From an uncultured Cytophagia bacterium (GTDB lineage Bacteria; Zhuqueibacterota; Zhuqueibacteria; Residuimicrobiales; Residuimicrobiaceae), in assembly GCA_964387285.1 (NCBI GenBank), contig CAYLWO010000003.1, positions 100,759-164,758 of the forward strand: a DNA stretch of 64,000 nucleotides, given 5' to 3'. The notes under the pieces are model-generated. The model did not search any database. It saw only the letters and a program-made list of their open reading frames with translations, and was not told the DNA's origin. Below are positions 8,219-64,000 of the stretch, piece by piece. The position numbers were made by a program, and so were the translations under genes. Each line of letters begins with the position of its first letter. Within the stretch, counting starts at the first letter, position 1.

Positions 8219-8479
8219 ATACAACCTCATGGTGTTGTGGAACCGGTCAAACGTCGCTCCGCGACGTGAATGATTACATGATATCTGGAACCGTGGGTTG
8301 AAACCCACGATTACCATCACCTGGCCGCTCCGCGATTAGCGAGTACTGCAAATCCTGTGGAATCCAATGGTCGCGGAGCGACCATTGCCGGTAGCCGGGC
8401 GTTTCAACGCCCGGAAAGGGAAAGCGAGCAGCCACGTCGCGTAGCGACGTATGGAGAAAAAAATAATGCGGAAAGTAGA
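8219..8479 (+). promoter_or_regulatory. Hairpin-dense 260-nt noncoding region between GH3 and the next gene; candidate structured leader or small RNA.
   Basis: At least six perfect short hairpins, including four of the form (A)CGTCGC-NNN-GCGACG(T) at about 8254, 8325/8366 and 8436. Also CCGTGGGTT..AACCCACG and CCGGGCGTT..AACGCCCGG. Confidence 0.4.
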
Positions 8480-10726
8480 ATGAATTCAAAAAATAAAAGT
8501 AACTACCTGGTTGCGGTGATTTTTTTCCTTTGTACCGCAATGGTCCATGCGCAAGCTCCCCAATATCCTCCCGGCGTCAGAGGGAGCACACATGTGTTTC
8601 AGCCGGAGCAAGGGCCTTTTGCAGGAGACACCGGACTGGCGAAAACAACGGGTCATCGGATATCTGTTCAGAGCACATCGGTCGGCGGCTTGCTTGAATT
8701 GGATGCCTACATTCCGGCCAAGAACCATTTAGCTGTCAGGTTTGACCATCTTACACAAACCTTACAGACGCTCATATCTGAACCGGACAGTCTGTTTTCA
8801 CAAACCGTGCAATCCGCCATTGCCAAAGCGCCGCGCTGGTTGCAGAATGATCTGCGTCACGTCTTTCGTTATTTGCGATCCGAGTACCAGGTGAAATGGG
8901 CGGACGCCATTTTAGCGGCTCAGGATCCCTATATTGATGAAGTGGCTTTTTGTATCGCACATTTGTCGCCGCAATATTTAATGTCCTCTTATGCGTACCC
9001 GCAGTTGCTCGCAGACAATGCCAGATTGATATATGAAAATGACGCTTCCTTGTCTTTTGTGCGGGTTGTGGATTACGGTTCTTCACAGACCGATCCTGAT
9101 TATTATTCCACGACGGTGTATCGCAAAGCCAGATATATCGACACCACCGAGGTCACGGTGCCTAAAGAAATTTATTATTGGTATATTGTGCATCCGAAAA
9201 TTACCGATGAGATCCCTGCCTACATCAATCCCGATGTGGTAGAGGATAATTACTCGCATCGCAACAATATCACCACGGCCGCTAACGGTTTTTTTTGGCG
9301 TGATTTTTTATTTAATCGCAGCGATGCCGGTTATGCCAGCGTCAAAGACCTGCTTAAAAAATGCCGGGTTGTCTGGAATGCGTTTCCCAGTCCGCCTAAT
9401 GCCGCACCCCATGCCATGGAGATGCTCAACCGCTGGATGGGCAGCAGTATGAAGTTTACCTCCAATGAAGAACGACCCCATCAGCCGGTGCGTATTTATC
9501 GCAAGCACATCGGTCGCTGCGGAGAAAACGGCGACCTGCGCGTGGCCATTGCCCGTTCAGCGCTGATTCCTGCGGCCAGCGTCGCATCCTATTCCACTGA
9601 TCATGTCTGGGATGAGTTCTGGGAAGAAAAATGGATTCATTGGGATGATGCCATCAATACTCCTTTCATGTATGTTGATGATTGGAAAAAACAATTCGGC
9701 ACCGTGTTTAAATGGCGCAGCGACGGTTTTCTTTTTCCTGTGACCGAAAGATATGCCAGAGATTATTGCACTTTGCATATTTATGCCGTCGATGCTCAGG
9801 ATCGTCCCATTGACGGGGCTCGCGTTATCTTATATACCGCAGGTCTGGACAACACCATGTGGTTTGATACCTACGGCACGACGGATCTGGACGGCAAGGT
9901 CAGTTTCGTACTCGGCGTCGGCCGCAGTTATTCAGCGCGGATGAGTTGTGATCTGGGCTCAGTGCCGGAAAGCAGCGAACTGATGCTGCAGGTTGTCTCT
10001 GAAACAGAGGATGGCCGGGAGTATCTGGCGGTGATGAGAACCAAGTCGGCCAGGCCCTCTCTGCTTTGGCATGAGCACGCACAGCCGGTTTTTAGTCAAA
10101 ATTCTTTTTCTCTGGATATCGATGTGACGATAGAGGATCAGATACTGCGCGGCGCTGATCCGTTCGATGATCTGGATCAGAATGCCTGGCATTTTGTCGC
10201 ACAAAGCAAAGGCAAATGCAACTTTATCGTGATGAATGAATCCGAGTATGACCAATATCTGGCCTGCGGAGAGATCACCGGCTATAATGCATTGCAGCGC
10301 ATCGATTCGTTGGCCAGCAATTTTTCTTTTGACGGTTCATCTGATTTAATCTTTCTCTGGGATAATTCTGCTGCTTTACATACGGCTCAACATATAAAAG
10401 GCGCATTTAGGCTTTATGCCGCAGCCGATCCGTCTATCCAAAAGGTTTCCATTTTATCGAATTATCCCAATCCCTATCGTCCTGAAAGCGGCCAGACCAG
10501 CATTCAATTCCAATTGCCTGTTAAAGCAAAAACCGAGGTGTCGATTTTTAATATTTTGGGGCAAAAAGTCATTACTTTAATCGATGCAGAATTATATGCT
10601 GGTTCGCACAAGGTCCTGTGGAATGGCCAGGACCGGAATGACGTCTGGGTCGGCTCGGGCGTGTATTTTGCCCGAGTGCGGACTCTTCAAGGCGAGTGCA
10701 GTCAAAAAATGCTTGTCATTCATTGA
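8480..10726 (+). CDS. Transglutaminase-like cysteine protease superfamily protein with a C-terminal T9SS sorting domain.
   Basis: Start chosen at MNSKNKSNYLVAVIFFLCTAMVHAQA (signal peptide). Cys/His/Asp triad context GRCGENGDL...STDHVWDEFWE...WDDA. C-terminal ...YPNPYRPESGQTSIQFQLPVKAKTEVSIFNILGQKVITL...GVYFARV... matches the classic T9SS C-terminal domain. Confidence 0.65.
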   Translation: MNSKNKSNYLVAVIFFLCTAMVHAQAPQYPPGVRGSTHVFQPEQGPFAGDTGLAKTTGHRISVQSTSVGGLLELDAYIPAKNHLAVRFDHLTQTLQTLISEPDSLFSQTVQSAIAKAPRWLQNDLRHVFRYLRSEYQVKWADAILAAQDPYIDEVAFCIAHLSPQYLMSSYAYPQLLADNARLIYENDASLSFVRVVDYGSSQTDPDYYSTTVYRKARYIDTTEVTVPKEIYYWYIVHPKITDEIPAYINPDVVEDNYSHRNNITTAANGFFWRDFLFNRSDAGYASVKDLLKKCRVVWNAFPSPPNAAPHAMEMLNRWMGSSMKFTSNEERPHQPVRIYRKHIGRCGENGDLRVAIARSALIPAASVASYSTDHVWDEFWEEKWIHWDDAINTPFMYVDDWKKQFGTVFKWRSDGFLFPVTERYARDYCTLHIYAVDAQDRPIDGARVILYTAGLDNTMWFDTYGTTDLDGKVSFVLGVGRSYSARMSCDLGSVPESSELMLQVVSETEDGREYLAVMRTKSARPSLLWHEHAQPVFSQNSFSLDIDVTIEDQILRGADPFDDLDQNAWHFVAQSKGKCNFIVMNESEYDQYLACGEITGYNALQRIDSLASNFSFDGSSDLIFLWDNSAALHTAQHIKGAFRLYAAADPSIQKVSILSNYPNPYRPESGQTSIQFQLPVKAKTEVSIFNILGQKVITLIDAELYAGSHKVLWNGQDRNDVWVGSGVYFARVRTLQGECSQKMLVIH

Positions 10727-10775
10727 AATACCGTAGTATATTTAATGTACCCCAGAGATTGCCCAAAAAGTAATA

Positions 10776-10910
10776 CAACCGTTTCATTCTGAGTATCTTA
10801 TGACATAAATGCCATGATTACCAAAATAACACGAAAACCATGTCATTGCGATCGAAGGAACGGTTGCTGACAAGGTGGCTGTTCTACTCTGGAGTGAAGC
10901 AATTCCTAGT
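10776..10910. repeat. Intergenic repeat family 1, copy A (modules aatcg(c/t)tccattc(a/t)gag ... aaaaccatgtcattgcga ... ctggagtgaagcaat).
   Basis: A core of about 72 nt (10834-10905) is about 75% identical to 17278-17348. The 5' module gtttcattctgag resembles aatcgctccattcag at 17258 and 19186. Confidence 0.5.
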
Positions 10911-10988
10911 ACATCAAAGTGTTATTAGAAGACCGCTACAGCGATATATGGTAACATATATTTTCGTTTCATTCAGATTGGGAAGAAT

Positions 10989-12509
10989 ATGATAAGCAAT
11001 TTTAAATGGTCTATGGTAAAGCGATTTTTGTTTTTTGTAATTGCCCTGAATGTTCTCTCCTGCAGTAAAAAAACGGATGTTGTCGAGCCCAGGGAAAAAA
11101 TACTGGCCAAGATCGGGAGCGCGACCATCTCTGTTGATGAATTTATTCGCCGTGCAGAATATACCGTGCGTCCTCCGTACTGCCGGGGAAATCAGAATCT
11201 CGATAAAAAAATCGTCATGAATTCGTTGATCGCGGAAAAGCTTTTTTCCATTGAAGCCGGCGACACCAACAGCTTTATCCAATCAGATCGGGTGCAACGC
11301 CATTTGCAGGGCAGGAAAGAGCAAAACATGCGTCAATTGCTCTATGAACAGGAAGCGCGCAACAAGGCGGTCATCGATACGGCTCAGGCCGTCAAAACCG
11401 CCAGGGTGGCGGGAAGAAAATACAGAATCTTTTATTTTAGCGCATCGGACAGCGCCAGAATGGAACATATTAAGGATGAGATCCTTGCCACCGGCGCCTT
11501 TGAAAGCGTTTATTTTAAAGTCACGGGACTGGACACCCTGCCGCAACGGGAGGTCGAGTGGTCAAAACAGGAGCACGACAAAATACTGGATTCGCTTTTT
11601 TCCGCGCCTTTACAAAAAAATCAAGTGGTCGGTCCCATCAAGATCAGCAATCAGCAATATATGTTGATCAAGGTAAACGGCTGGATTGACCGTCCGGCCA
11701 TTACCCAGTCCATGTCCCAGGAAAGGTGGCGCAATATTACGGACGAATTTACCGAACGCGCCTCGACAAAATTGTATGATGATTTCATCCGTAAGGTTAT
11801 GAAATCTAAAAAGATCGAATTTAATCCGAGCACCATGTACAAGATCATTGATTTGATGGGCCCCAGGTATTTTAAAACCGCTGAGGAAAAGGCCAGAATA
11901 CAAGAGCAGTCCCTGGAAAAGCAGGTGGACGACCGTAGCGAGAATGCCGAGCTGGCAAAAGCCATGGAGCAGTTATATGATGAACCCTTTTTCAAGGTTG
12001 ACAACCAGGTGTGGACTGTCAAAATGTTCACCGATGAGTTGATGGTGCATCCGCTGGTTTTTCGCGAACAAAAATTTCCAAAGCAGGAATTTGGCAAGCA
12101 GCTGCAACTCGCCATCATGGATATGGTTCGGGATCGATTTTTGGCCGAAATCGCCTATGAGCGCGGCTATGATCGGATTAACGTAGTGCAACGCAATGTC
12201 AATATGTTCAAGGACAACATCAATTACCAATATCAAAAAACCAGATACTTGCATGGCGTGGTGCCGGACACGGTCGCTGAAATGAATTATATCCCGCTGA
12301 TCGAAAAATATCTCAATCCCTATGTGGATTCGTTACAACGAAAATATTCGGATCAAATCTATGTGGATGTTGCGGCGTTTAACGAAATTCGACTCACTCG
12401 CATCGATCTCAGCGTGACTCAGGAAAACGTGCCGTTCCCGCAAATGGTGCCGTCCTTCCCATTGGTCACGACCGACAACGCACTGGATTACGGCCATAAA
12501 ATGAAATAG
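10989..12509 (+). CDS. Hypothetical lipoprotein, possibly with a SurA-N-like chaperone domain.
   Basis: Lipobox ...ALNVLSCSKK. No confident family assignment from sequence alone. Confidence 0.45.
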   Translation: MISNFKWSMVKRFLFFVIALNVLSCSKKTDVVEPREKILAKIGSATISVDEFIRRAEYTVRPPYCRGNQNLDKKIVMNSLIAEKLFSIEAGDTNSFIQSDRVQRHLQGRKEQNMRQLLYEQEARNKAVIDTAQAVKTARVAGRKYRIFYFSASDSARMEHIKDEILATGAFESVYFKVTGLDTLPQREVEWSKQEHDKILDSLFSAPLQKNQVVGPIKISNQQYMLIKVNGWIDRPAITQSMSQERWRNITDEFTERASTKLYDDFIRKVMKSKKIEFNPSTMYKIIDLMGPRYFKTAEEKARIQEQSLEKQVDDRSENAELAKAMEQLYDEPFFKVDNQVWTVKMFTDELMVHPLVFREQKFPKQEFGKQLQLAIMDMVRDRFLAEIAYERGYDRINVVQRNVNMFKDNINYQYQKTRYLHGVVPDTVAEMNYIPLIEKYLNPYVDSLQRKYSDQIYVDVAAFNEIRLTRIDLSVTQENVPFPQMVPSFPLVTTDNALDYGHKMK

Positions 12510-12547
12510 CCTGTGTATTGCGCATAAATCCTTTCAAATTTCAAGGG

Positions 12548-14980
12548 ATGATTATGAAACGTCTCTTTTCCCTGTTCCTTTGTTTACCAACGTTGTTCAC
12601 TTGTTCGAGTTTCGGCGGCAAGATCACACTGCAATCAGATGCGTTGCAGCTTTCTTTAAATGCGCAAGGCCAGGTGGTTGCGCTGCGCGATCCAGCCGCC
12701 GGCATCAACTATCTTGCCAAGAATCACCCTGCGCCTTTGTTATCCGTTCGTGTGCACGGGCAAGTTCTGCAACCGGATCGGGTTCGCCGGCATAAAGATC
12801 AGCTGATTCTTGATTTTGAAAAAGTCACGACCATTTTCATCCGTACGATCGAACACGACCGTTATATCACTTTTGCGGTTGATTCGGCGACAAATGCAGA
12901 ACAGATTGAATTAGTCATCTGGGGTCCCTATCCGACTACTCTTGGCGAGGTTGTCGGTGAAACCGTAGGCGTGGTGCAAGGCAAGGAATACGCCCTCGCG
13001 ATTCAGGCTCTTAATCCCAAAACCATCGGTGGTTATCCCTGGAACGATAACGATTGTATGCCGCAGATCGATATCTTTGACCAGAAGGATCTGTCGGATA
13101 TGAAGGAAGATGGCAAGCGTTATGTGCTGTATCGCGTGGAGGCGGCCAAACCGGACAGCTTTGGCAGCACGCTACAGGCTTATTGCCGCAATCGCAACAG
13201 TGAGCGCATGATCCAAAATTTGGACCACGAACAATATCTGGCTTCGGCCTATGCTGACGGCGGCATCATCGGTTCCCGGATTGCGCTTTTTGGCTGTACG
13301 GTAAAGGATGTCCTGCCGACCCTAGCCGCTATTGAAATCAATGAAAATTTGCCCCATCCGCAGATCGATGGACAATGGGGTAAAACAGCCCCGACTGCTT
13401 CTGCCGCCTATCTGATAATGGAATTTGGCGAACAAAATATTGAACAGGCGCTGGCCATTACTAAAAAAGCCGGTCTGCGCTATCTCTACCATCCCGAGCC
13501 TTTTGAAACCTGGGGGCATTTTGTTCTGCGGAAAAACATGTTCCCGAACGGAGTGGCCGGCCTGCGGCGTTGTGTTCAGGCGGCCGAGCAAGCCGGAATC
13601 ATGCTTGGCGTACATACTCTGTCCAATTTTATTACTCCGAATGATTCCTATGTGACGCCGGTTCCTGATAAAAGATTGGCCAAAATAGGCGCAACACAAT
13701 TGGAAAACGACATTGATGCACAACAAACCGATATCCCGGTTCACTCGCCCGAACTGTTCAAACCGTCCAAAGGCGACAATCTCAAAACGGTTGTGATCGA
13801 TGATGAATTGGTGCAATATGCCAGGGTCAGTGAGCAAGCACCCTGGACGTTACTGCAGTGCAAGAGGGGCGCCTTCGCTACGCGTCCAGGCGCGCATTTA
13901 AAGGCTGCGGCTGTAGCCAAATTGGCAGATCACGGCTACAAGGTGTTTCTAAGCAACGCAGAGTTATCCATCGAGATGGCGGAACGTATTGCTGATCTCT
14001 TTAACGCCACGGGCTTGAGACAAATTTCCTTTGACGGATTGGAAGGCAATCGCTCCACCGCCATGGGCAACTATGGAGAAATTTTATTTACCACAGCCTG
14101 GTACGACAGGCTGGATGCAAAAATTCGACAGCATTATATTGCCGATGCCAGCCGCACCACGCACTATTTTTGGCATATCTATACGCGTATGAACTGGGGC
14201 GAACCCTGGTATGCGGGATTTCGCGAAAGCCAGACCGAATATCGTTTACGGAATCAACCCTATTTCAAGCGCAACCTCATGCCGGCCATGTTGGGCTGGT
14301 TTCAGATGAAACCGGAGACCAGTCTGGAAGACATGGAATGGATGTTGGCGCGCTCTGCGGGTTTTCATGCCGGATTCGGTCTCGTAGTCCATGAGGCTGC
14401 GCTGCAACAAAATGGCGAGGCGGAGCAGATACTGCAAAGCATTGCGCAATGGGAAAAAGCGCGCATGGCCCTTGCGTTTTCGGAAGAGCAAAAGTCAAGA
14501 ATGCAAAATGTGAAAAATGAATTTCATCTGCAAGCGGTGAACGATCATGAATGGCGACTGACGCCGATTCATTCCTACAAGCTGCAGCATGAGAATGTCC
14601 GCCAACCTGGCGAGCCGCGACAATCGACGCTTACATTTGTCGCTTCCTCTCATCACCAACAGGTCGAATTTCTGCTTACAGCAGACGGCAGCGGGGCGGA
14701 AAACATCGGCCTCGAAATCGATGGTTCTCCTCGCACGCGGCTGCCGGTCACGCTTCGAGATGGACAGGTGCTGCGGTATCGTGGAGGCAACAAGGCTATG
14801 CTGTTAAGTAAAAACTGGGAAAAATTGCAGGACGTTTCAGTTAATCCTGATCTGTTTAGTCTTGCGCAAGGTGAACACACAGTGTCCATTTCCTGTGCTT
14901 TTAAAAACACCGATGCCGGTCGCGTGAAATTGGAACTCAGAGTCTTGGACAACAGTGAAAAGGCAGCAAGGGGATTATGA
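12548..14980 (+). CDS. Hypothetical secreted protein of about 810 aa, presumed glycan-active but with no family recognised.
   Basis: Signal peptide MKRLFSLFLCLPTLFTCSS. Sits inside a run of secreted CAZyme-like genes. Confidence 0.45.
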   Translation: MIMKRLFSLFLCLPTLFTCSSFGGKITLQSDALQLSLNAQGQVVALRDPAAGINYLAKNHPAPLLSVRVHGQVLQPDRVRRHKDQLILDFEKVTTIFIRTIEHDRYITFAVDSATNAEQIELVIWGPYPTTLGEVVGETVGVVQGKEYALAIQALNPKTIGGYPWNDNDCMPQIDIFDQKDLSDMKEDGKRYVLYRVEAAKPDSFGSTLQAYCRNRNSERMIQNLDHEQYLASAYADGGIIGSRIALFGCTVKDVLPTLAAIEINENLPHPQIDGQWGKTAPTASAAYLIMEFGEQNIEQALAITKKAGLRYLYHPEPFETWGHFVLRKNMFPNGVAGLRRCVQAAEQAGIMLGVHTLSNFITPNDSYVTPVPDKRLAKIGATQLENDIDAQQTDIPVHSPELFKPSKGDNLKTVVIDDELVQYARVSEQAPWTLLQCKRGAFATRPGAHLKAAAVAKLADHGYKVFLSNAELSIEMAERIADLFNATGLRQISFDGLEGNRSTAMGNYGEILFTTAWYDRLDAKIRQHYIADASRTTHYFWHIYTRMNWGEPWYAGFRESQTEYRLRNQPYFKRNLMPAMLGWFQMKPETSLEDMEWMLARSAGFHAGFGLVVHEAALQQNGEAEQILQSIAQWEKARMALAFSEEQKSRMQNVKNEFHLQAVNDHEWRLTPIHSYKLQHENVRQPGEPRQSTLTFVASSHHQQVEFLLTADGSGAENIGLEIDGSPRTRLPVTLRDGQVLRYRGGNKAMLLSKNWEKLQDVSVNPDLFSLAQGEHTVSISCAFKNTDAGRVKLELRVLDNSEKAARGL

Positions 14981-17253
14981 TGTTTGCCAACAGGACGTTT
15001 TCAATTCTATATTTATTGACCACTGGCGTCTGCTCGGTTGTTTGTGGAGAAAAGATCACTCTGGTGGAAAATCACGCCTCTGTCTATAGAATTGTCAAAC
15101 CGTTTGCAGCGGATTCGCTGGAAGATCGGGCGGCTGTGGCGTTGCAGAGCTATCTTGCACAGATCAGCGGCGTCACCTTGTCCATCGTCGACGACCGGCA
15201 GCCGTTTGTTTCGCAGTCCATCCTGATCGGTCACAACAGCCATTTGCTGCGGGCAGGATTCGATCCTGAATCCTTGAATCCCGGCGATGACGGTTTCATC
15301 ATTAAAAGCTGTGGATCGACAGTGATCCTTTATGCAAAATCTTCCCAGGCCGTGCTTTATGCGGTATATGCATTTCTGGAGGATCATCTTGGTTGCCGTA
15401 TGTATGCGCCGGATGCGATTAAAATTCCCCGTCAAGAACAGCTTTCGTTTGATGAAATCGACGACCGACAGGCGCCCTTTTTTACCTGGCGGGAAACTCT
15501 GCACTACTTTCCCTATACCAGCCAGGTCTATTGCGACTGGCATAAATTGCAGAACCGCCGGTCATCCAGAGAAAAGTGGGGCATGTGGGTGCATACCTTC
15601 GACCGGCTGGTTCCGGCGGAAAAATATTTTACGCAACATCCCGAATATTTCAGCGAGATCAACGGCATTCGTTATCGCGACGGTCAGCTTTGCCTCACCA
15701 ATCCGGATGTGCTGAATACGGTCATCGAGAATTTGCGTGGAATGATCAAGGAAAAGCCGGATGCGCTTTACTGGTCGGTTTCACAAAATGACAATTATAA
15801 CTATTGCACCTGCCCGACGTGCCGAGCGCAGGATGAAAAACACGGTTCCCACAGCGGGTCTTTATTGAGCTTTGTCAACCAGGTGGCAGCCAGTTTTCCC
15901 GACAAGATCATTTCTACTCTGGCCTATCAATACACCCGCCAGGCGCCCCAGGATTTGCGGCCGCTAAAAAACGTCAATATCATGTTCTGCTCCATTGAAT
16001 GCAATCGCAGCAAACCGTTGGCCAGTGATCCGGGAGAGGCGGCGTTTCGCAGGGATTTGGAGGATTGGGGCGCGTTGACCTCCAACATCATTGTCTGGGA
16101 TTATGTCGTGCAGTTTCGCAATCTTTTGGATCCGTTTCCCAATTTACACGTGCTGCAACCCAATCTGCAATACTTTCGTGATCACAACTGTCGCCTGATG
16201 TTTCAGCAGGGGAGCGGCTACAATATCAGCGAGATGCATGAACTGCGCACCTATCTCATTGCCAAACTGCTGTGGAATCCGGATATTGATATCGAGAAAG
16301 TGAAACGGGATTTTCTCGAAGGATATTATGGCGCTGCCGGACGATATATCGGCGATTATCTTGATCTGTTGCACAAAAGCCTGATCGCCTCGGACGCCAA
16401 ACTGGATATTTATGGTTATCCGTTTGACGCCATCCATACCTATCTTACGCCTGAATTGCTGAGCTCTTATCAAACCTGTTTTGCGCAAGCGAGAAAAGCG
16501 GTGCAAAAAGACTCGCTTTTGTTGGCCCGGGTGGAACGGGCGGAATTGGCCGTCGAGTTTGCTGTTCTGGACATCTCTTTGCATGATATCAACAGCGAGC
16601 TTGCCTTTGTTCAGCAAAAGGCGGGAAAACGAATTCCGAATCAGGGCATGCTTCGACGCCTGGAAGAGTTTGTCCAAGCTTGTTCGCGACACGGCATTGA
16701 GCGTTTGGAAGAACACGGTTACTCGCCGCTAGAATTTCAAAAAAATATTCTGGCCATGGTCGCCAAAGCGACCAATCCTAACAAAGCGCATGGGAAACCG
16801 GTCCGGCTTTTGACTGCCTGCAGTGAAAAGTATCCGGCCGGCGGTGGGCCGGCATTAACTGACGGCAAATACGGCCAGGTGGATTATCACTATAACTGGC
16901 TCGGATTCGAAAATGCGCATCTCGAGGCAGTAATCGATTTGCAGAAGGAAACCGAAATTCAGGAAATCAGCGCTGATTTTTTACAGCACGATTTGGACTG
17001 GGTTTTTCTGCCGCTGGTAGTTGAATATGCCGTTTCCAGCGATGGAAAAAAGTTTAGTAAGGTTGGTCGCCTGGAGCACGCTGTTCAGCCCACCGGCGCT
17101 AAACGATTTTTGCACTCTTTTACTCAGCCGCTGGTTGGAATAAAAGCCCGCTACGTCAAGATACTTGCGGAATCGGTCAAGTTGTGTCCTGCCTGGCATC
17201 GCGGCTCTGGCCAGCCGGCGTGGATTTTTATTGATGAAGTGATTGTACGATAA
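14977..17253 (+). CDS. DUF4838-like protein with a C-terminal discoidin (F5/8 type C)-like carbohydrate-binding domain.
   Basis: Start overlaps the upstream stop (ATGA). N-terminal block KITLVENHASVYRIV...AAVALQSYLAQISG resembles Bacteroides DUF4838 glycan-locus proteins. C-terminal GGPALTDGKYGQVDYHYNWLGFENAHLEAVIDL is discoidin-like. Confidence 0.5.
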   Translation: MMFANRTFSILYLLTTGVCSVVCGEKITLVENHASVYRIVKPFAADSLEDRAAVALQSYLAQISGVTLSIVDDRQPFVSQSILIGHNSHLLRAGFDPESLNPGDDGFIIKSCGSTVILYAKSSQAVLYAVYAFLEDHLGCRMYAPDAIKIPRQEQLSFDEIDDRQAPFFTWRETLHYFPYTSQVYCDWHKLQNRRSSREKWGMWVHTFDRLVPAEKYFTQHPEYFSEINGIRYRDGQLCLTNPDVLNTVIENLRGMIKEKPDALYWSVSQNDNYNYCTCPTCRAQDEKHGSHSGSLLSFVNQVAASFPDKIISTLAYQYTRQAPQDLRPLKNVNIMFCSIECNRSKPLASDPGEAAFRRDLEDWGALTSNIIVWDYVVQFRNLLDPFPNLHVLQPNLQYFRDHNCRLMFQQGSGYNISEMHELRTYLIAKLLWNPDIDIEKVKRDFLEGYYGAAGRYIGDYLDLLHKSLIASDAKLDIYGYPFDAIHTYLTPELLSSYQTCFAQARKAVQKDSLLLARVERAELAVEFAVLDISLHDINSELAFVQQKAGKRIPNQGMLRRLEEFVQACSRHGIERLEEHGYSPLEFQKNILAMVAKATNPNKAHGKPVRLLTACSEKYPAGGGPALTDGKYGQVDYHYNWLGFENAHLEAVIDLQKETEIQEISADFLQHDLDWVFLPLVVEYAVSSDGKKFSKVGRLEHAVQPTGAKRFLHSFTQPLVGIKARYVKILAESVKLCPAWHRGSGQPAWIFIDEVIVR

Positions 17254-17254
17254 T

Positions 17255-17350
17255 GTAATCGCTCCATTCAGATAATATAAAAACCATGTCATTGCGAGCG
17301 GAGGCACAATCGCTGACAAAGGGAAGAGCTGCGCTGGAGTGAAGCAATCC
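17255..17350. repeat. Intergenic repeat family 1, copy B.
   Basis: taatgtaatcgctccattcagataatataaaaaccatgtcattgcgagcgg...gctggagtgaagcaatcc; homologous to 10776-10910 and shares its 5' module with 19181-19200. Confidence 0.5.
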
Positions 17351-17395
17351 TCTTATACAGCAAGAGATGTTATTAAATTCAAAAAATGGGTGACT

Positions 17396-17430
17396 AACCC
17401 CGGGGTCGCGTTTTTTGCGACCCCGGGTGT
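17396..17430. terminator. Strong palindromic stem-loop between the DUF4838-like and fucosidase genes; possible terminator.
   Basis: AACCCCGGGGTCGC-GTTTTTT-GCGACCCCGGGTG is a 12-13 bp stem. The T-run sits in the loop rather than 3' of the stem, so the call is tentative. Confidence 0.35.
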
Positions 17431-17492
17431 TCCATAGCTCTCTATTTGTGGGACAGCGATTCTTTCTCAAATATTCAAATAAGGATAATGTC

Positions 17493-18980
17493 ATGTTTAA
17501 AGAAATGCTGCTTCTTTTTACCTCTGTCCTGATCTGTGCTGCCGTCGCACAGCATGAGGAGCAAAAATATTTTCCTGATCCGAATCCGGTTGTTCAGAAA
17601 AGAATTCAGGAATGGCAAAACCTGAAATTCGGATTGCTCATGCACTGGGGCGGTTATAGTCAATGGGGCATTGTCGAATCCTGGTCCCTGTGTCCCGAGG
17701 ATTACGGCTGGTGCGAACGCAAGATGGGCGCCAACAGCCGCGACTATTTTTCCTATAAAAAAGAGTATGAAAATTTGAAACTCACCTTTAATCCCATCAA
17801 TTTCGATCCGAAAAAGTGGGCGCAGGCTGCCAAACAGGCCGGTATGCGCTATGTGGTCTTTACCACCAAACATCACGACGGATTTTGCATGTACGACACG
17901 AAGCAAACCGATTACAAAATTACCGATCAAGACTGCCCGTTTCACAGCCATGAGAACGCCGATGTGACCAAAGCCATTTTTAACGCCTTCCGTGAACAGG
18001 GAATGTGGACCGGCGCCTATTTCTCCAAGCCGGACTGGCATTGCGAGAACTATTGGCATCCCTATTATCCGCCGCTGGATCGCAATGTGAATTACGATCC
18101 TCTGGAATATCCCGAACGCTGGGAGAAGTATGTGCAGTTCACCCACAACCAGATCATGGAATTGATGAGCAACTATGGCAAAGTGGATATTCTGTGGTTG
18201 GACGGCGGTTGGGTGGCGAAACTGTCCAGGGAAGAGGTGCAGAATTATTGGAAAAAAGAAGTTGAAACAACGGCATCCGGTTTTATCAAATCCCGCATTG
18301 TGAATCAGGACATTCGCATGGACGAACTGGTGGCCAAAGCGCGCGCCAAACAACCCGAGTTGATTGTAGTGGACCGCGCGGTGCCGGGAGTGAACCAGAA
18401 TTATCTGACTCCGGAAAACCGCGTGCCGGAAAAAATGCTGCCTTATCCCTGGGAGTCCTGTATCATTATGGGCGGCGGCTGGGGCTGGGTGCCGAATCCG
18501 AAATTCATGAGCAGCCGCGAGCTGGTGCACATGCTGGTGGACATTGTGGCCAAGGGCGGCAATTTGCTGCTCAATCTGGGTCCGGCGCCGGACGGCAGCT
18601 GGCCTGAAGAAGCCTATGTCCGGCTGCAGAACATCGGCGAGTGGATGAAAGTTAACAGCAAAGCGATTTACGATTCCCGTCCCATTGCACCGTACAAGGA
18701 AGAACAGATTTGTCTGACCAAAAAACCTGACGGCAAGGTGTACGCCATTTATCTGGCAAAGGATGGCGAGAACGTGATGCCGGCAGAAATGCATCTGAAA
18801 TCTTTGCAATTGCAAAACGGCGCTGTGCTCAGGTTATTGGGTTATGCTAAACCGCTGCAATGGAAAAAAGCGGACCAGGGATTCACTGTATACCTGCCTA
18901 AATCTGTTTGCGCTGCGCCGCCGTGCCAGTATGCGTGGACCATAGAGATCTCGGGAGTAAAAGACCTCACAGGTCTGTGA
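17493..18980 (+). CDS. Alpha-L-fucosidase (GH29).
   Basis: AAGGA RBS 7 nt upstream of the ATG. Signal peptide. GH29 signature YVVFTTKHHDGFCMYDTKQTDYKI and LLMHWGGYSQWG. Confidence 0.8.
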   Translation: MFKEMLLLFTSVLICAAVAQHEEQKYFPDPNPVVQKRIQEWQNLKFGLLMHWGGYSQWGIVESWSLCPEDYGWCERKMGANSRDYFSYKKEYENLKLTFNPINFDPKKWAQAAKQAGMRYVVFTTKHHDGFCMYDTKQTDYKITDQDCPFHSHENADVTKAIFNAFREQGMWTGAYFSKPDWHCENYWHPYYPPLDRNVNYDPLEYPERWEKYVQFTHNQIMELMSNYGKVDILWLDGGWVAKLSREEVQNYWKKEVETTASGFIKSRIVNQDIRMDELVAKARAKQPELIVVDRAVPGVNQNYLTPENRVPEKMLPYPWESCIIMGGGWGWVPNPKFMSSRELVHMLVDIVAKGGNLLLNLGPAPDGSWPEEAYVRLQNIGEWMKVNSKAIYDSRPIAPYKEEQICLTKKPDGKVYAIYLAKDGENVMPAEMHLKSLQLQNGAVLRLLGYAKPLQWKKADQGFTVYLPKSVCAAPPCQYAWTIEISGVKDLTGL

Positions 18981-19063
18981 GATTTATCCTGATTATTCCT
19001 TAATTTGAACGATATGTGCTCAAAAAATAAACGTGAGGTTATCCAAAAAGCAAGTTTAGCAAA

Positions 19064-19200
19064 TAGTTTCGGTTTTTACCGGAATTTTCTCCGCTTAAAG
19101 TAGGCGGAACCAAGTGCCAATTAAAAAATATTAGGTTACGTATTGTTCGTATAGCAAACTTTTGGGACAACCTCAAGGAAAATGCAATCGCTCCATTCAG
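19064..19200. repeat. Intergenic repeat family 2, copy 1: a composite of the ccggaa(a/t)tttctccgc-taaag-ggcggaac hairpin module, aattaaaaa(a)tattaggtta, aactttt-gacaacc-caagg, and the 5' module of family 1.
   Basis: Module-by-module similarity to 50173-50322. The core hairpin is also at 36594-36625. Ends with aatgcaatcgctccattcag, which matches 17251-17270. Confidence 0.5.
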
Positions 19201-36593: not shown

Positions 36594-36625
36594 GCCGGAA
36601 ATTTCTCCGCCTAAAGGCGGAACTA
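36594..36625. repeat. Intergenic repeat family 2, copy 2 (core only).
   Basis: gccggaaatttctccgcctaaaggcggaacta is 32/32 identical to 50187-50218. Confidence 0.5.
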
Positions 36626-36710
36626 GCTGCTCATTACGACTTTGAACGGGGAGGAAGAACGTCCTGTCCCAACTCTGGCGCCGGAGGATTTACCGGCGCG
36701 ATCATGATCC

Positions 36711-49242: not shown

Positions 49243-50157
49243 ATGAATAAACTTATTGAAATACAGGGTCTGTACAAATCATTTGGCGATACCACCGCCG
49301 TCGCCGGCATGGATTTGTGCGTTTATGAAGGCGAGATGCTGGGATTGATCGGCCCTGATGGCGCCGGCAAAACCACCACCTTGCGCATATTATGCGGTTT
49401 GTTGCGTCCTGATCAGGGCGCTGCGACGATGGCCGGCTGGCAGGTTGCTACCGAAATGAAAAAAATCCGTCACATCATCGGCTATATGCCGCAACGTTTT
49501 TCCCTGTATCCGGATTTAACCGTAGCGGAAAACCTGCGCTTCTTCAGTGACCTGTTCCAGGTAAGCAAACAAGAACGTGAATCGCGATTGCAGAGATTGC
49601 TGGAATTCAGCCGTCTGGGCCCTTTTGCCGATCGCCAGGCCCATGCCTTGTCCGGCGGCATGAAACAGAAACTGGCCTTGTCCTGTACGTTGATTCATAC
49701 GCCCAAGATTTTGCTTTTGGACGAACCGACCACCGGCGTGGATCCGGTTTCTCGCCGGGAATTCTGGGACATCCTCGCCGAGCTGCGCAGCCAGGGCGTG
49801 ACCATCGTCGTCACCACGCCGTACATGGATGAAGCGGCGCGCTGCGACCGTGTGGCGTTCATTCACCGCGGCAAGATACTGTCCGTGAGCAGACCGGATG
49901 AAATAGCAAAAATGTACGCCGGCACTTTGCTGGAAATTCGTTGTCGGAATAATGTTGCCGCTGCTGCAAAGTTGACCGCCAGCGGCCGATTCGCTTCCGT
50001 GCAAATTTTCGGCGACCGACTGCATGTCGCCGGATCCGAATCGGCGGAATGTATGCAAATGATGGTGCAGGAACTCCTCGGTCCGGAAGATGATGCTTTA
50101 TCAATCAAGAAAATTCCGGCAGGCATCGAGGACGTATTTGTCGAAATGCTCAAGTAA
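49243..50157 (+). CDS. ABC transporter ATP-binding protein (corresponds to the N-terminal nucleotide-binding domain of the fused E. coli YbhF).
   Basis: Walker A GPDGAGKTTT, signature LSGGMKQK, Walker B LLLDEPTTGVD. Confidence 0.8.
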   Translation: MNKLIEIQGLYKSFGDTTAVAGMDLCVYEGEMLGLIGPDGAGKTTTLRILCGLLRPDQGAATMAGWQVATEMKKIRHIIGYMPQRFSLYPDLTVAENLRFFSDLFQVSKQERESRLQRLLEFSRLGPFADRQAHALSGGMKQKLALSCTLIHTPKILLLDEPTTGVDPVSRREFWDILAELRSQGVTIVVTTPYMDEAARCDRVAFIHRGKILSVSRPDEIAKMYAGTLLEIRCRNNVAAAAKLTASGRFASVQIFGDRLHVAGSESAECMQMMVQELLGPEDDALSIKKIPAGIEDVFVEMLK

Positions 50158-50172
50158 AGCAACCTTTGTAGG

Positions 50173-50322
50173 TAGTCACGGCTTTAGCCGGAAATTTCTC
50201 CGCCTAAAGGCGGAACTACATGCTAATTAAAAATATTAGGTTATTTTTTGTTCCCCTATTAGTGTTCTTGCTGCTTATTTAATACTGTTAACAAATAGCG
50301 AACTTTTTAGACAACCGCAAGG
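50173..50322. repeat. Intergenic repeat family 2, copy 3 (composite). Fills the 196-nt gap between the two ABC ATPase genes.
   Basis: The core is 32/32 identical to 36594-36625. The modules ctaattaaaaatattaggtta and aactttttagacaaccgcaagg match 19116-19138 and 19156-19177. Confidence 0.5.
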
Positions 50323-50353: not shown

Positions 50354-51103
50354 ATGGATAAAAACTATTCGGTCGAGGTAACAGACCTGACCAAACAATT
50401 CGGTCATTTTCTGGCTGTCGATCATATCAGCTTTCAGGTTCATGACGGCGAGATTTTCGGTTTTTTAGGCGCTAACGGCGCCGGCAAAACCACCACCATA
50501 AAAATGTTGTGCGGCTTGTTGTTGCCCACTTCCGGCCAGGGACAGGTTGAAGGACTGGACATCTATACACAGACCGAAGCCATTAAACAGATCATCGGCT
50601 ATATGTCGCAAAAATTTTCTCTTTATGATGATCTTACCGTTGCTGAAAATCTCCGGTTTTACGGTGGCATTTACGGCATGAAGGCCGGTCAATTGACGGT
50701 GGCATGCGAAAGTCTTTGCGATGAGATGGGCTTGCGACCGCATCTGAGCAAATTGACGCGCTCCATTCCCACCGGCTGGAAGCAACGGCTGGCGCTCAGC
50801 TGCGCTATTTTGCATCAACCGAAAATACTTTTTCTGGATGAACCCACCGGCGGCGTGGATCCGATTTCCAGACGCGAATTCTGGGACATTATCTATCGCC
50901 TGGCAGAGCAGGGTACGACGGTATTTGTCACCACCCATTATATGGATGAGGCCGAGTATTGCAACCGTTTGTCCATCATGCATGACGGACGCATCGTCGC
51001 CATGGGTTCTCCCGCGGAACTGAAACAGCGCTATCATAAAAATACGATTGAAGATGTCTTTATCGATCTGGTTAAACGCAGCCGGCCGACGGAGCCATTA
51101 TGA
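50354..51103 (+). CDS. ABC transporter ATP-binding protein (second nucleotide-binding domain).
   Basis: Walker A GANGAGKTTT, signature (Q-loop) context, Walker B LFLDEPTGGVD. Confidence 0.8.
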   Translation: MDKNYSVEVTDLTKQFGHFLAVDHISFQVHDGEIFGFLGANGAGKTTTIKMLCGLLLPTSGQGQVEGLDIYTQTEAIKQIIGYMSQKFSLYDDLTVAENLRFYGGIYGMKAGQLTVACESLCDEMGLRPHLSKLTRSIPTGWKQRLALSCAILHQPKILFLDEPTGGVDPISRREFWDIIYRLAEQGTTVFVTTHYMDEAEYCNRLSIMHDGRIVAMGSPAELKQRYHKNTIEDVFIDLVKRSRPTEPL

Positions 51104-63284: not shown

Positions 63285-63671
63285 ATGTTGTATGAAGAAA
63301 TTACAGGGAAAATACTATCAACCGCATTTGATGTGGCGCATGAACTGGGCAGTGGTTTTATAGAATCGGTCTACGAGAAGGCCTTAAAGATCGCTATGCA
63401 GGAAAAGGGATTACAGGTAAAAGAACAGCATCCAATAACGGTCTTTTTTCGGGGACAGGATGTCGGTGATTTCTATGCTGATCTTTTTGTAGAAGAAAAG
63501 GTGATCGTTGAATTAAAAGCTGTTAAAACTCTGGCGCCGGAACATCAAGCTCAAGTGATCAATTATCTAAAGGCAAGCGGCATAGAGGTCGGACTGTTGA
63601 TCAACTTTGGTCCGCCAAAAATCGAATATAAAAGATTAGTTCGCTACAAGACGAATCAGGATGAAAAATAA
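63285..63671 (+). CDS. GxxExxY-family protein (PD-(D/E)xK-like small protein).
   Basis: ITGKILSTAFDVAHELGSGFIESVYEKAL...DLFVEEKVIVELKAVK...QVINYLKASGIEVGLLINFG matches the GxxExxY family. Confidence 0.75.
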   Translation: MLYEEITGKILSTAFDVAHELGSGFIESVYEKALKIAMQEKGLQVKEQHPITVFFRGQDVGDFYADLFVEEKVIVELKAVKTLAPEHQAQVINYLKASGIEVGLLINFGPPKIEYKRLVRYKTNQDEK

Positions 63672-63716: not shown

Positions 63717-63803
63717 GTTATAGTTTTAATTGACATGGATGGACAGTATGTACAGGATAAATTAATGACTAAATTTTCCCTGTATATCCTGCCTATCCAT
63801 GTT
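63717..63803 (+). repeat. Structured repeat unit R1 (about 90 nt, nested hairpins).
   Basis: agttatagttttaattgacatggatgg...gtacaggata...tgtatatcctgcctatccatg. Outer stem CATGGAT-GG/CC-ATCCATG, inner stem ACAGGATA/TATCCTGT-like. A second copy is at 63902-63990. Confidence 0.4.
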
Positions 63804-63837
63804 TAAAAAAAGTCTCAATTTGTCGTTCTATGTTTCC

Positions 63838-63901: not shown

Positions 63902-63990
63902 TAGTTATGTTTTAATCGACATGGATAAGCAAGAGGTACAGGATAAAAGAATTTTTGAATTTCTCTTGTATATCCATTCCATCCATATTA
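63902..63990 (+). repeat. Structured repeat unit R2 (second copy; the window ends at 64000).
   Basis: ctagttatgttttaatcgacatggataag...gtacaggata...tgtatatccattccatccatat. About 70% identical to R1 with the stems largely preserved. Confidence 0.4.
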
Positions 63991-64000
63991 ATAATATGTC

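Follow-up and report, generated by a model that had tools for sequence, protein, structure and literature searches.

Two intergenic hairpin repeats, probable relatives of CGTC-tagged REPs and Ssn-related motifs

Two intergenic copies and a recurrent short motif

The window, by which we mean the whole 64-kb stretch of DNA that was analysed, carries two intergenic copies of a repeat, at ~10771–10930 (copy 1) and ~17257–17374 (copy 2), both in sense orientation between co-directional genes. Neighbouring genes encode a transglutaminase/Por_Secre_tail protein, a DUF4838 protein and a fucosidase, and copy 2 starts 4 nt past the TAA (17251–17253) that ends the DUF4838 gene; the proteins encoded at 10989 and 19289 had no Pfam match. 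This annotation of the neighbours confirmed what a first-pass annotation of the sequence had claimed, namely that the copies occupy gaps between functionally unrelated genes. Neither element is likely to have a function tied to a particular gene at its site.

The same first-pass annotation had described two long copies (10776–10910 and 17255–17350) that share a core of about 72 nt at about 75% identity and a conserved ATTGC...GCAAT closing stem, a description that held up except for the ends, which were slightly off, as copy 1 reaches ~10930 and copy 2 ~17374. A repeat search of the window paired 10826–10873 with 17272–17319 at 81% identity, and global alignment of the cores (10834–10905 against 17280–17350) gave 57 of 72 matching positions (79%) with a single 1-nt indel, the identity over ~105 nt being 75%. 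Two tracts, AAAACCATGTCATTGCGA (18 nt) and CTGGAGTGAAGCAAT (15 nt), are identical in both copies, as are the arms ATTGC and GCAAT of the stem (10845–10849 with 10899–10903 in copy 1; 17291–17295 with 17344–17348 in copy 2). A search profile built solely from seven copies of an unrelated KSB1 genome, with the window sequences left out, also recovered copy 1 (10773–10906, E = 3.1e-15, model positions 6–140) and copy 2 (17277–17351, E = 3.6e-12, model positions 65–140), and it found no further match at E ≤ 10 anywhere in the 64-kb window, position 19181 included; two copies in all were seen in the 64 kb.

A third locus, thought at first pass to carry the 5' module alone, fared differently. The 15-nt motif itself, AATCGCTCCATTCAG, is indeed present as an exact 15-mer on the + strand at both 17257–17271 and 19186–19200 (24 of 30 positions identical when flanks are included), but the first of these lies outside the KSB1-homologous region, where the profile leaves it unaligned, and the second is no member of the family. 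Since 19181 has no family-profile match and the motif recurs elsewhere, this locus looks like a separate short motif rather than a copy of the element. The pattern CG[CT]T[CT]CATTCAG was found at 10965, 17260, 19189, 43242 and, on the − strand, 21448; five of its nine near-matches are intergenic, whereas the intergenic share of the window is only 13%. One related motif, CGTTTCATTCAG (10965–10976, + strand), lies 13 nt before the ATG at 10989, and a similar one, CGTTTCATTCTGAG, stands at the head of copy 1 (10779–10792). The window has 14 exact direct repeats that are 15 nt or longer, where ~3 would be expected, and several fall within coding DNA. The 19186 site is itself embedded in a mosaic of other small repeats (19002–19148).

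Modular anatomy and covarying stems

Structurally, copy 1 (10771–10930, + strand) is the full composite: a degenerate module A comes first, followed by an A-rich linker and then module B, with a closing outer stem. Its core hairpin unit (10841–10906) reads TGTC-ATTGC-GA, a 45-nt apical insert, GAA-GCAAT and the tail TCC, with the tag TGTC at 10841–10844 and with T instead of the usual C directly 3' of the palindrome (10904). Copy 2 (17257–17374, + strand) lacks the module A hairpin but has the short motif, module B and the outer stem; its core unit (17287–17351, tag at 17287–17290) has a 44-nt insert between the same flanking elements and the tail CCT, and retains the C after the palindrome (17349). 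Having lost this key 3' C, copy 1 is probably decaying. The outer stem is predicted by folding to pair AATAACAC (10825–10832) with GTGTTATT (10919–10926) in copy 1, and GATAATAT (17271–17278) with ATGTTATT (17367–17374), through two G-T wobbles, in copy 2. When set against the KSB1 arms AAGGACAT/ATGTCCTT, the copy 1 outer stem differs at three pairs, each altered on both sides with pairing kept.

The core reads TGTC-ATTGC-GA...GAA-GCAAT-C; there is no variation in its lower stem and internal loop, and its apical part is hypervariable. More generally, the unit runs from an unpaired (T/C)GTC tag at the 5' end through a stem starting with AT, a GA//GAA internal loop and a 2-bp covarying helix to a 3' C. 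As RNA, copy 1 folds at −31.2 kcal/mol (z = −3.1), a value equalled by none of 200 shuffles, whereas copy 2 folds no better than its shuffles (z = −0.9 and 0.0). The two copies fold into a common three-helix layout, and between them one helix changes from TACT/AGTA to GCTG/CAGC with full compensation, as does the outer stem; the KSB1 MAG copies do not conserve a 5' hairpin that is specific to the window. In an alignment of the KSB1 and window copies, 95.5% of cells are paired (88.6% in shuffles), and 7 of 11 pairs show changes on both sides, which none of 500 shuffles attained; slid controls gave 17–60%. The base pairs of the structure covary. In the cross-phylum set, 98 of 140 units have a canonical 2-bp helix, a number that drops to 61 when partners are shuffled, and the apical inserts are frequently perfect hairpins.

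The strands are not equivalent: owing to G-U pairs, the + strand of the copy 1 core folds at −22.5 kcal/mol and the other strand at −13.4 kcal/mol, and in 87 of 95 units the tagged strand outfolds its complement, as would suit a substrate that is single-stranded and strand-specific. The known Ssn-related motif discussed below has neither the additional covarying outer stem nor the two-hairpin fold of the window copies, features that could reflect a role at the RNA level.

Distribution beyond the window and linked GIY-YIG genes

At least 15 related copies lie on seven contigs of the MAG JAFGSU01, in arrays and inverted pairs, and homologous copies of the KSB1 MAG occupy many unrelated intergenic sites. 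Module combinations vary, locus L043 having A-A-B arrays and window copy 2 only B, which bears out the module shuffling noted at first pass. The pattern GTCATTGCGA-N25-55-GGAGTGAAGCAAT occurs at no fewer than 71 loci in at least 13 phyla; among the matches listed are Bacteroidota, Cyanobacteria, Planctomycetes, Chloroflexi, Proteobacteria and CPR, and also Omnitrophota, Firmicutes, Actinomycetota, Fibrobacter, KSB1 and others. A shortened version of the pattern was found in 24 viral contigs. Among 181 units from other genomes, GTC is preceded by C in 107 and by T in 65, GCAAT is followed by C in 176, and the 3-nt tails include CTC (58), CTT (32), CCA (29) and CCC (18). Nested units were seen at loci L095 and L096.

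In these other genomes, the unit occurs in both orientations and in arrays. Flanking genes at 55 loci are co-directional in 31 cases, convergent in 17 and divergent in only 7, a scarcity of divergent sites that has also been reported for tagged REPs. Relative to co-directional genes, orientation is unbiased (38 versus 33), and the neighbouring genes represent 168 Pfam families, none of which exceeds three loci.

Among small ORFs near the units, the top Pfam family is that of single-domain GIY-YIG proteins (~98 aa). In six genomes (L001, L003, L032, L042, L056 and L066) the GIY-YIG gene is flanked by units on both sides, and in L026 it has a unit on one side. At 45% identity (E = 1e-25), the protein of L003 matches the single 94-aa SsnA homologue of N. 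gonorrhoeae, which is itself embedded in nine exact NTS repeats, NTS-ssnA-NTS being the published layout in Neisseria (PMC11893778). Searches with tblastn of the window and of the KSB1 loci examined found no GIY-YIG/Ssn-like ORF.

Interpretation and comparison with known repeat classes

We consider it likely that the two copies are diverged members of a 115–160-nt non-coding dispersed repeat of a KSB1-like lineage and, jointly with this, that their core belongs to the CGTC/TGTC-tagged REP superfamily, whose architecture is also that of Ssn-related motifs (type: Neisseria NTS/dRS3). Within the window they are probably orphan members of this KSB1-like repeat. The broader first-pass picture of a non-coding, dispersed, modular and hairpin-forming element unrelated to its flanking genes is supported. 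Mechanistically, hairpin recognition and cutting have been shown for Neisseria and three homologues, and by analogy we posit that, whenever the + strand becomes single-stranded, as in replication, repair or incoming DNA, the unit would fold into a hairpin whose stem, GTC tag and 3' C could be read by an Ssn-family nuclease, a small protein with GIY-YIG as its single domain, which would then cut a few nucleotides upstream, while the repeats would build up and recombine in intergenic DNA as BIME-like mosaic arrays.

Because both copies lie in sense orientation between co-directional genes, they would also form stable hairpins in any read-through mRNA. The element might instead act as RNA, either as a small RNA or as an intercistronic or 3'-UTR structure that, in the way of E. 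coli REPs, blocks exonucleases, terminates transcription in part or serves as a processing site, and so tune the flanking glycan-degradation genes. The sense orientation of both copies, the stable fold of copy 1, the compensated three-helix layout common to both copies and the better folding of the + strand through G-U pairs are all consistent with such a role, and tagged REPs are thought to be transcribed (PMC3733652). We nevertheless regard it as unlikely, since copy 2 folds like its shuffles, the window 5' hairpin is not kept in the KSB1 MAG copies, and the stem sequence that is invariant across phyla points to a sequence-specific protein, SsnA being without RNA binding. A gene-specific regulatory RNA, where the first pass had suggested a structured RNA or regulatory module, is likewise improbable given the unrelated neighbours, the unbiased orientation and the outcome of the Rfam search, in which no family reached the gathering threshold in the window, 10700–11000 gave only chance-level matches (E above 0.7) and 18 repeat-rich loci yielded only a tRNA.

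The first-pass suggestion of a MITE-like element finds less room still, and we judge it very improbable that the copies are deletion derivatives of a DDE or HUH insertion sequence that moved via TIRs and left TSDs. Dispersal over unrelated intergenic sites would suit such an origin, the 8-bp inverted arms around module B can be read as TIRs, and a 10-nt direct repeat, CGTTTCATTC (10779 and 10965), flanks most of copy 1. However, the arms vary between lineages by compensation and are not conserved, the direct repeat is internal to the element as defined in KSB1, and copy 2 has none; no TIR or TSD defines the element. No transposase family is enriched near the units and no parent element was seen; tblastn with an IS200 sequence, a query of limited sensitivity for RAYTs, found no IS200/RAYT-like TnpA in the window or in ~100 loci, and CGTC-type repeats have been reported without a dedicated transposase (PMC3733652). 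As for a small protein (MSLR...) or the remnant of a duplicated gene start, we give it hardly any credence, although every unit starts with an ATG after an A-rich stretch and the modules of the KSB1 MAG are short ORFs that end at module borders. The reading frames differ, through the 1-nt indel between copies 1 and 2 and a 1-nt insertion in b-type KSB1 copies; the peptides measure 50 aa (copy 1), 18 aa (copy 2) and 26 aa, with no conserved middle, and those of the window diverge past four residues because of the indel, just as the first-pass annotation had it. Conservation tracks base pairs, not codons, and the occurrence of the unit in both orientations and in arrays is equally at odds with a protein.

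Compared with known repeats, the tagged hairpin unit has several counterparts. Small dispersed repeats (SDRs) of Nostocaceae, reportedly described by Elhai and co-workers, share with it very small units with constant ends, a variable centre, hairpins and nesting; they are reported from Nostocaceae only, whereas the window-type unit is found across phyla.

GTAG-tagged REPs, REPINs and BIMEs, with their RAYT/TnpA(REP) transposases, resemble the unit in being short extragenic hairpins with an unpaired 5' tetranucleotide, in their inverted doublets and mosaic arrays with other motifs, and in having a single-copy, repeat-flanked cognate nuclease gene, as the unit has in other genomes; recognition as ssDNA would be a further shared trait (Bertels and Rainey 2011, PMC3116915; Quentin et al. 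2018, PMC6006769). The gene linked to the units encodes a GIY-YIG protein, however, and RAYT is an HUH-Y1 transposase. Identity with REPIN/RAYT systems was rejected, the tag being (C/T)GTC-A and not GT[AG]G and the window copies being single and both on the + strand.

A further counterpart is the superfamily of CGTC-tagged REPs, which includes Rickettsia RPE-4/6 and Neisseria dRS3 (Di Nocera, De Gregorio and Rocco 2013, BMC Genomics 14:522, PMC3733652). These have an unpaired CGTC tag, often TGTC or else CCTC, stems starting with AT and an unpaired 3-nt tail, mostly CCA, and their families, known from five phyla with KSB1 not among them, have uninterrupted stems of 8–9 bp and loops of 4–5 nt (PMC3733652). 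Both window copies carry TGTC followed by ATTGC...GCAAT, that is, a C/TGTC tag and a stem starting with A-T and T-A pairs; a short tail starting with C is typical of the unit, the tails in the window being TCC (copy 1) and CCT (copy 2). Like these REPs, both copies are extragenic, lie between genes of the unidirectional/convergent kind and have no linked transposase, and in other genomes the unit often forms dimers of opposite orientation. The unit departs from them in its 5-bp stem, GA//GAA loop and further 2 bp, with apical parts of 45 and 44 nt in the window. Neither ATTGC nor GCAAT occurs in the text of PMC3733652, and GTCATTGC, ATTGCGAG and GAAGCAAT are absent from its supplements, the consensus figure aside.

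There remain the Ssn-related motifs (SRMs), inverted repeats of 20–50 nt that form a hairpin on one strand and, only as ssDNA and on the tagged strand, are bound by ~94-aa GIY-YIG nucleases and cut a few nucleotides upstream (Chenal et al. 2025, Nat Commun 16:2388, PMC11893778). By definition they flank a single-domain GIY-YIG gene of the cd10448 type (ssnA) in their own genome. The Neisseria repeats act as single-stranded DNA, not RNA (PMC3733652, PMC11893778); cutting by SsnA depends on three nucleotides upstream, and binding hinges above all on the C that directly follows the palindrome, within the SRM tail RNCYNB (PMC11893778). The full SRM string, HGTCWYN(0-2)YYVSBRHN(0-5)WNVSBRGN(0-2)RNCYNB, matches the Neisseria NTS, but neither the minimal unit, either copy or the rest of the window, nor the units around the GIY-YIG genes. 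Of its parts, the tag is present as TGTCAT at 10841 and 17287, and the tail fits in copy 2 (ATCCTC) but not in copy 1, with its T at 10904. The differences extend to the stem, ATTGC-GA..GAA-GCAAT with an internal loop in the window and ATTCCCGCG..GCGGGAAT in NTS, to an apical part that ranges from 3 to more than 50 nt, to a length of 62–63 nt from the first stem base in the window, above the 20–50 nt of SRMs, to the enclosure of the window unit by a larger covarying stem and its junction with another module, and to the lack of an ssn gene within the 64 kb. In common with SRM/NTS, the unit has an unpaired (C/T)GTC followed by AT, a hairpin, a C after the palindrome (in copy 2 and in most units elsewhere, though not in copy 1) and a strand-specific fold; it has hundreds of clustered intergenic copies in many phyla; and in other genomes units of the window type flank SsnA homologues on both sides. 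Since repeats of this class are Ssn recognition sites in other bacteria, the window repeat is probably not a new system; what is specific to the lineage is the ~45-nt apical insert, the 8-bp covarying outer stem and, sometimes, a second module preceding the unit.

Two intergenic copies of a KSB1 repeat family

The window holds two long intergenic copies of one repeat, copy 1 at about 10771-10930 and copy 2 at about 17257-17374, both on the forward strand, and the pair described in the first-pass annotation is real: a repeat search of the window matched 10826-10873 to 17272-17319 at 81% identity, the copies share an exact 18-mer (AAAACCATGTCATTGCGA) and an exact 15-mer (CTGGAGTGAAGCAAT), and global alignment gave 57 identical positions of 72 in the core, with one 1-nt indel, and 75% identity over ~105 nt. 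The surrounding genes likewise agree with that description. Copy 1 lies between a gene (8357-10726) whose transglutaminase-core product carries a weak T9SS sorting domain and an unannotated lipoprotein-like ORF (10989-12509), and copy 2 begins directly after the stop codon of a DUF4838 gene (14977-17253), upstream of an alpha-L-fucosidase gene with a likely start at ATG 17493. A small protein was discarded as an explanation, since reading frames are not conserved among the copies: reading both confirmed that their MSLR ORFs (50 codons in copy 1, 18 in copy 2) have only the first four residues in common.

A nucleotide profile built solely from seven copies in JAFGSU01, a KSB1 MAG, and run on the 64-kb window located exactly two sites: 10773-10906, covering modules A and B at E=3.1e-15, and 17277-17351, covering only module B at E=3.6e-12. 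Both copies are thus homologous to a dispersed KSB1 family, whose JAFGSU01 members resemble them in core and flanks. In that MAG, module A comprises TGTCATCGCGAG, a small hairpin and AAGGACA, followed by an A-rich linker, and module B comprises TGTCATTGCGA...GAAGCAATCTCCGCC and ATGTCCTT. The module shuffling proposed earlier is borne out, with A-A-B type arrays (and inverted neighbours) in the KSB1 MAG, an A-B arrangement with a degenerate module A in copy 1, and B alone in copy 2. Metagenome scans gave no match to the KSB1-type pattern and three to the window-type pattern, namely two coding coincidences and one generic unit, with no additional copy from the source organism among them.

CGTTTCATTC, present at 10779 and 10965, was considered as a target-site duplication around copy 1 but discarded, since the aligned KSB1 copies extend upstream of the left repeat. 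The DUF4838-fucosidase spacer measures 60 nt in L073, a locus from a relative, against 239 nt in the window, a weak hint of insertion since borders are not mappable at 63% protein identity; the DUF4838 protein of the window has its nearest database relatives at 61-63% identity, one of them named KSB1, so the organism is KSB1-like and has no close relative in the databases. In relatives that share the window's glycan-degradation genes, the intergenic gaps hold other small hairpin repeats (ccaggcggagcctgg, ccacgagctttagctcgtgg and gacaggat-type runs, at L073:9389-10001, L074:7327-7879 and L074:13738-14233), several of which we take to be cross-phylum. A perfect 12-bp palindrome, ACCCCGGGGTCGC-GTTTTTT-GCGACCCCGGGT, lies 23 nt past copy 2 at 17397-17428, with no U-tract after it on either strand, and a Logan contig from the same sample as SRR12133404_266352 ends within this region, at ~17420.

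A third locus, at 19181-19200, had also been assigned to the element. Its 15-mer (19186-19200) is indeed an exact match to 17257-17271, and near-matches to CG[CT]T[CT]CATTCAG are intergenic in five of nine cases, against an intergenic fraction of 13% for the window; the motif occurs at 10965, 17260, 19189 and 43242 on the forward strand and 21448 on the reverse, recurring upstream of or between several genes, with one copy 13 nt upstream of ATG 10989. Membership in the element did not hold: because the KSB1-only profile has no third match in the window up to E=10, nothing of the element is placed at 19181, and the motif falls outside the KSB1-homologous region. A lone 15-mer is weak evidence, as chance predicts ~3 exact direct repeats of 15 nt or more in the window, which contains 14, several of them in coding DNA. 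The 19186 motif is treated here as a separate short motif, and CG[CT]T[CT]CATTCAG may be regulatory or may be a fragment of a repeat.

The intergenic region around 19186 is a patchwork of other small repeats. A second family has three intergenic copies (19002-19148, 36594-36660 and 50187-50253), with a 32-nt exact core, GCCGGAAATTTCTCCGCCTAAAGGCGGAACTA, bearing a CCGCC/GGCGG hairpin and followed by AAAAATATTAGGTTA. Near the window's end lies a PDDEXK_3 (GxxExxY, PF13366) gene (63285-63671), and after it come two 92-nt palindromic repeats of the GGATGGACAGGAT type (63723-63814 and 63909-64000; 73% identical). The 34-nt segment 63846-63879 between these repeats is 19002-19035 in inverted form. 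Just beyond the second repeat, at about window position 64097, is the end of Logan contig SRR12133404_266352, and short-read contigs also end in related repeat zones of the source genome. Adjacent paralogous ABC-transporter ATPase genes, with ~75% identical stretches at 49321-49549 and 50438-50666 (spacing 1,117 nt), are an ordinary tandem gene duplication.

A folded core unit found across phyla

The core ends of the window copies are identical to those of a unit, written (C/T)GTCATTGCGA...GAAGCAATC, that extends far beyond KSB1. Scanning one genome per species with GTCATTGCGA-N25-55-GGAGTGAAGCAAT placed it at no fewer than 71 genome loci, and a shorter pattern matched 24 viral contigs. The genome matches listed, seven of them from JAFGSU01, cover Bacteroidota, Cyanobacteria, Planctomycetes, Chloroflexi, several Proteobacteria classes, CPR groups, Omnitrophota, Firmicutes, Actinomycetota, Fibrobacter, Calditrichia, KSB1 and others. 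The flanking genes among the matches listed are co-directional in 31 cases, convergent in 17 and divergent in 7, and the unit shows no preferred orientation relative to co-directional genes (38 versus 33). Opposite-orientation pairs and arrays are frequent. GTC is preceded by C or T in 172 of 181 units, and the tail starts with C in 176.

In its minimal form the unit is a 26-mer, GTCATTGCGAAC-NNN-GTGAAGCAATC; longer units carry inserts in place of the three loop bases, which are often perfect hairpins and in some cases a nested hairpin repeat of another kind. Structurally, the dinucleotide following GCGA pairs with the one preceding GAAGCAAT in 98 of 140 distinct units, compared with a mean of 61 and a maximum of 72 when partners are shuffled. 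Among 95 long-insert units, the ATTGC/GCAAT stem appears in the minimum-energy fold of 81, and in 87 the tagged strand folds more stably than the complementary one. Readings of the core as a k-turn, loop E, hammerhead, attC or CsrA site were dropped because the defining nucleotides are absent or unconserved and the loop varies among units.

Several loci show further repeat architecture. In viral contig L095 (7159-7208), the apical loop of an ATTGCGA..GAAGCAAT hairpin holds a nested GTCATCCTGAGC..GTCGAAGGA unit, which is of another repeat class but shares the GTCAT head and GA/GAA layout, and in viral contig L096 (7196-7233) a GCGAAGC mini-hairpin occupies the equivalent loop. Locus L029 (1500-2600; Bacteroidia bacterium PG1894_169) holds a ~465-nt tandem unit made of CAGTAAA/CAGTCAA heptamer runs, an inverted hairpin-unit pair and a 300-nt palindromic segment. 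Units in L027, L028, L054, L059 and L061 are bordered by heptamer runs of a similar kind. The unit at 7366-7422 of L021, an 8-kb Omnitrophica locus, lies inside an opposite-strand ORF of more than 2,600 codons. It may represent an intragenic copy of the sort described for tagged REPs; alternatively, the arrangement may be an artefact of calling ORFs from stop to stop.

Within the KSB1-like family the hairpins are conserved and covary, and the compensatory changes that the first-pass annotation had proposed looking for were found. When 15 sequences, KSB1 and window copies together, were aligned, pairing in the consensus helices came to 95.5%, against 88.6% after column shuffling, and none of 500 shuffles attained the observed value; 7 of 11 pairs show changes on both sides (2.1 expected), and pairing falls to 17-60% when partners are slid by 1-3 columns. 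A 2-bp helix beside the internal loop occurs as AC/GT, GT/AC and GC/GC, and an 8-bp outer stem around module B covaries across lineages, its arms being AAGGACAT/ATGTCCTT in KSB1, AATAACAC/GTGTTATT in copy 1 and GATAATAT/ATGTTATT in copy 2. The copy 1 RNA folds at -31.2 kcal/mol (z=-3.1); copy 2 adopts the same three-helix layout, with a fold no better than shuffles. A long-range pairing of the copy 1 5' module with GGAGTGAAGC was discarded, not being conserved in KSB1 copies.

GIY-YIG genes beside the unit

A first survey of neighbouring genes, which took the longest ORF on each side of a unit, found no enriched family and missed small GIY-YIG genes. When the survey was repeated on ORFs 75-240 aa long and no more than 700 nt from a unit, GIY-YIG ranked first among Pfam families. 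By tblastn, such genes adjoin units in seven loci from Bacteroidota and one CPR genome (L001, L003, L026, L032, L042, L056 and L066), and in six of the seven an ATTGCGA...GAAGCAAT unit stands on both sides of the gene. Three of these, L001, L032 and L042, seem to represent one locus beside dnaG that three Pedobacter species share, which leaves ~5 independent cases among roughly 85 loci. The L003 protein has a single match place in N. gonorrhoeae, at 45% identity, where the ORF encodes 94 aa (BLASTP E=1e-25) among nine exact copies of the Neisseria type repeat (NTS), which is the published layout of the ssnA locus. A link to IS200/RAYT was rejected, tblastn with an IS200 TnpA sequence as query having given no match in the window or the roughly 100 loci.

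The unit is therefore physically linked to SsnA homologues in other genomes. Chenal et al. 2025 (PMC11893778) describe ssnA as a 94-aa single-domain GIY-YIG gene flanked by the Neisseria NTS CGTCATTCCCGCGMAVGCGGGAATCYRG and, in many phyla, by Ssn-related motifs (SRMs). SsnA binds and cuts its motif solely as single-stranded DNA and solely on the tagged strand; cutting depends critically on the three bases upstream of the palindrome and binding on the C that follows it, and such strand-specific activity is reported for Neisseria and three homologues (PMC11893778). Because the window-type unit flanks SsnA homologues elsewhere, it is the putative motif that partners a sister clade of the Ssn nucleases. 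Tag and first stem arm are TGTC-ATTGC in both window copies; after the palindrome, copy 2 keeps the key C at 17349, and copy 1 has T at 10904 in its place.

Functionally, we posit that the source organism carries a cognate nuclease, that copy 2 may still be recognisable by it while copy 1 would be decaying, and that the copies, probably without a gene-specific role at either site, would be present as hairpins within read-through mRNA. Both window copies are most likely passive relics. A broader reading, which we regard as possible but rather doubtful, is that ATTGC-GA...GAA-GCAAT hairpins form a distinct, widespread Ssn-type clade (at least 13 phyla plus phages) missed by the SRM string, with an apical loop that tolerates or attracts insertions, including nested hairpin repeats, and that in the KSB1-like lineage they were built into a larger covarying three-helix element, maybe with a second, RNA-level role in read-through polysaccharide-utilisation transcripts. 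If such a clade exists, its cognate GIY-YIG nucleases would represent new ssDNA cleavage specificities, and should they cut the ATTGC-type hairpin, the nuclease family now being developed into ssDNA tools would gain specificities.

Comparison with known repeat classes

The repeat finding is real and is explained by a known kind of element; what is new is the lineage and the unusual expanded, composite form. For annotation, this accounts for a recurrent intergenic sequence from which gene callers make spurious MSLR... and VIA...KQS mini-ORFs. Rfam, suggested as a check in the first-pass annotation, returned no family, either at gathering thresholds for the window and 18 loci or at permissive E-values for copy 1, and searching the literature by sequence string gave primer coincidences only. 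Two classes from the literature match, the Ssn-related motifs and a REP superfamily defined by Di Nocera et al. 2013 (PMC3733652). Members of the latter, among them Neisseria dRS3 and Rickettsia RPE-4/6, have an unpaired CGTC (often TGTC) tag, stems beginning with A-T pairs and a 3-nt tail, commonly form dimers, and are sited between unidirectional and convergent genes without a linked transposase.

The published degenerate SRM string matches neither the unit, nor the window copies, nor any other place in the window, and tblastn found no GIY-YIG ORF in the window or the KSB1 loci examined. On these grounds, and given the short, interrupted stem, the long apical part and the T at 10904, we file the window element as a variant that would work like an SRM or CGTC-REP, not as a strict member. 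A unit with the critical GTC tag and 3' C nonetheless occurs from Cyanobacteria to CPR bacteria and phages and flanks SsnA homologues, which indicates a broader Ssn-motif range than the current search motif covers, and the KSB1-like lineage now joins the hosts of tagged palindromic repeats. The result matters most for indicating that a large clade escapes the SRM definition in current use. Only the head (HGTCWY) and tail (RNCYNB) of its string fit the unit, which differs from the defined CGTC families in a short, interrupted stem and a far longer apical part.
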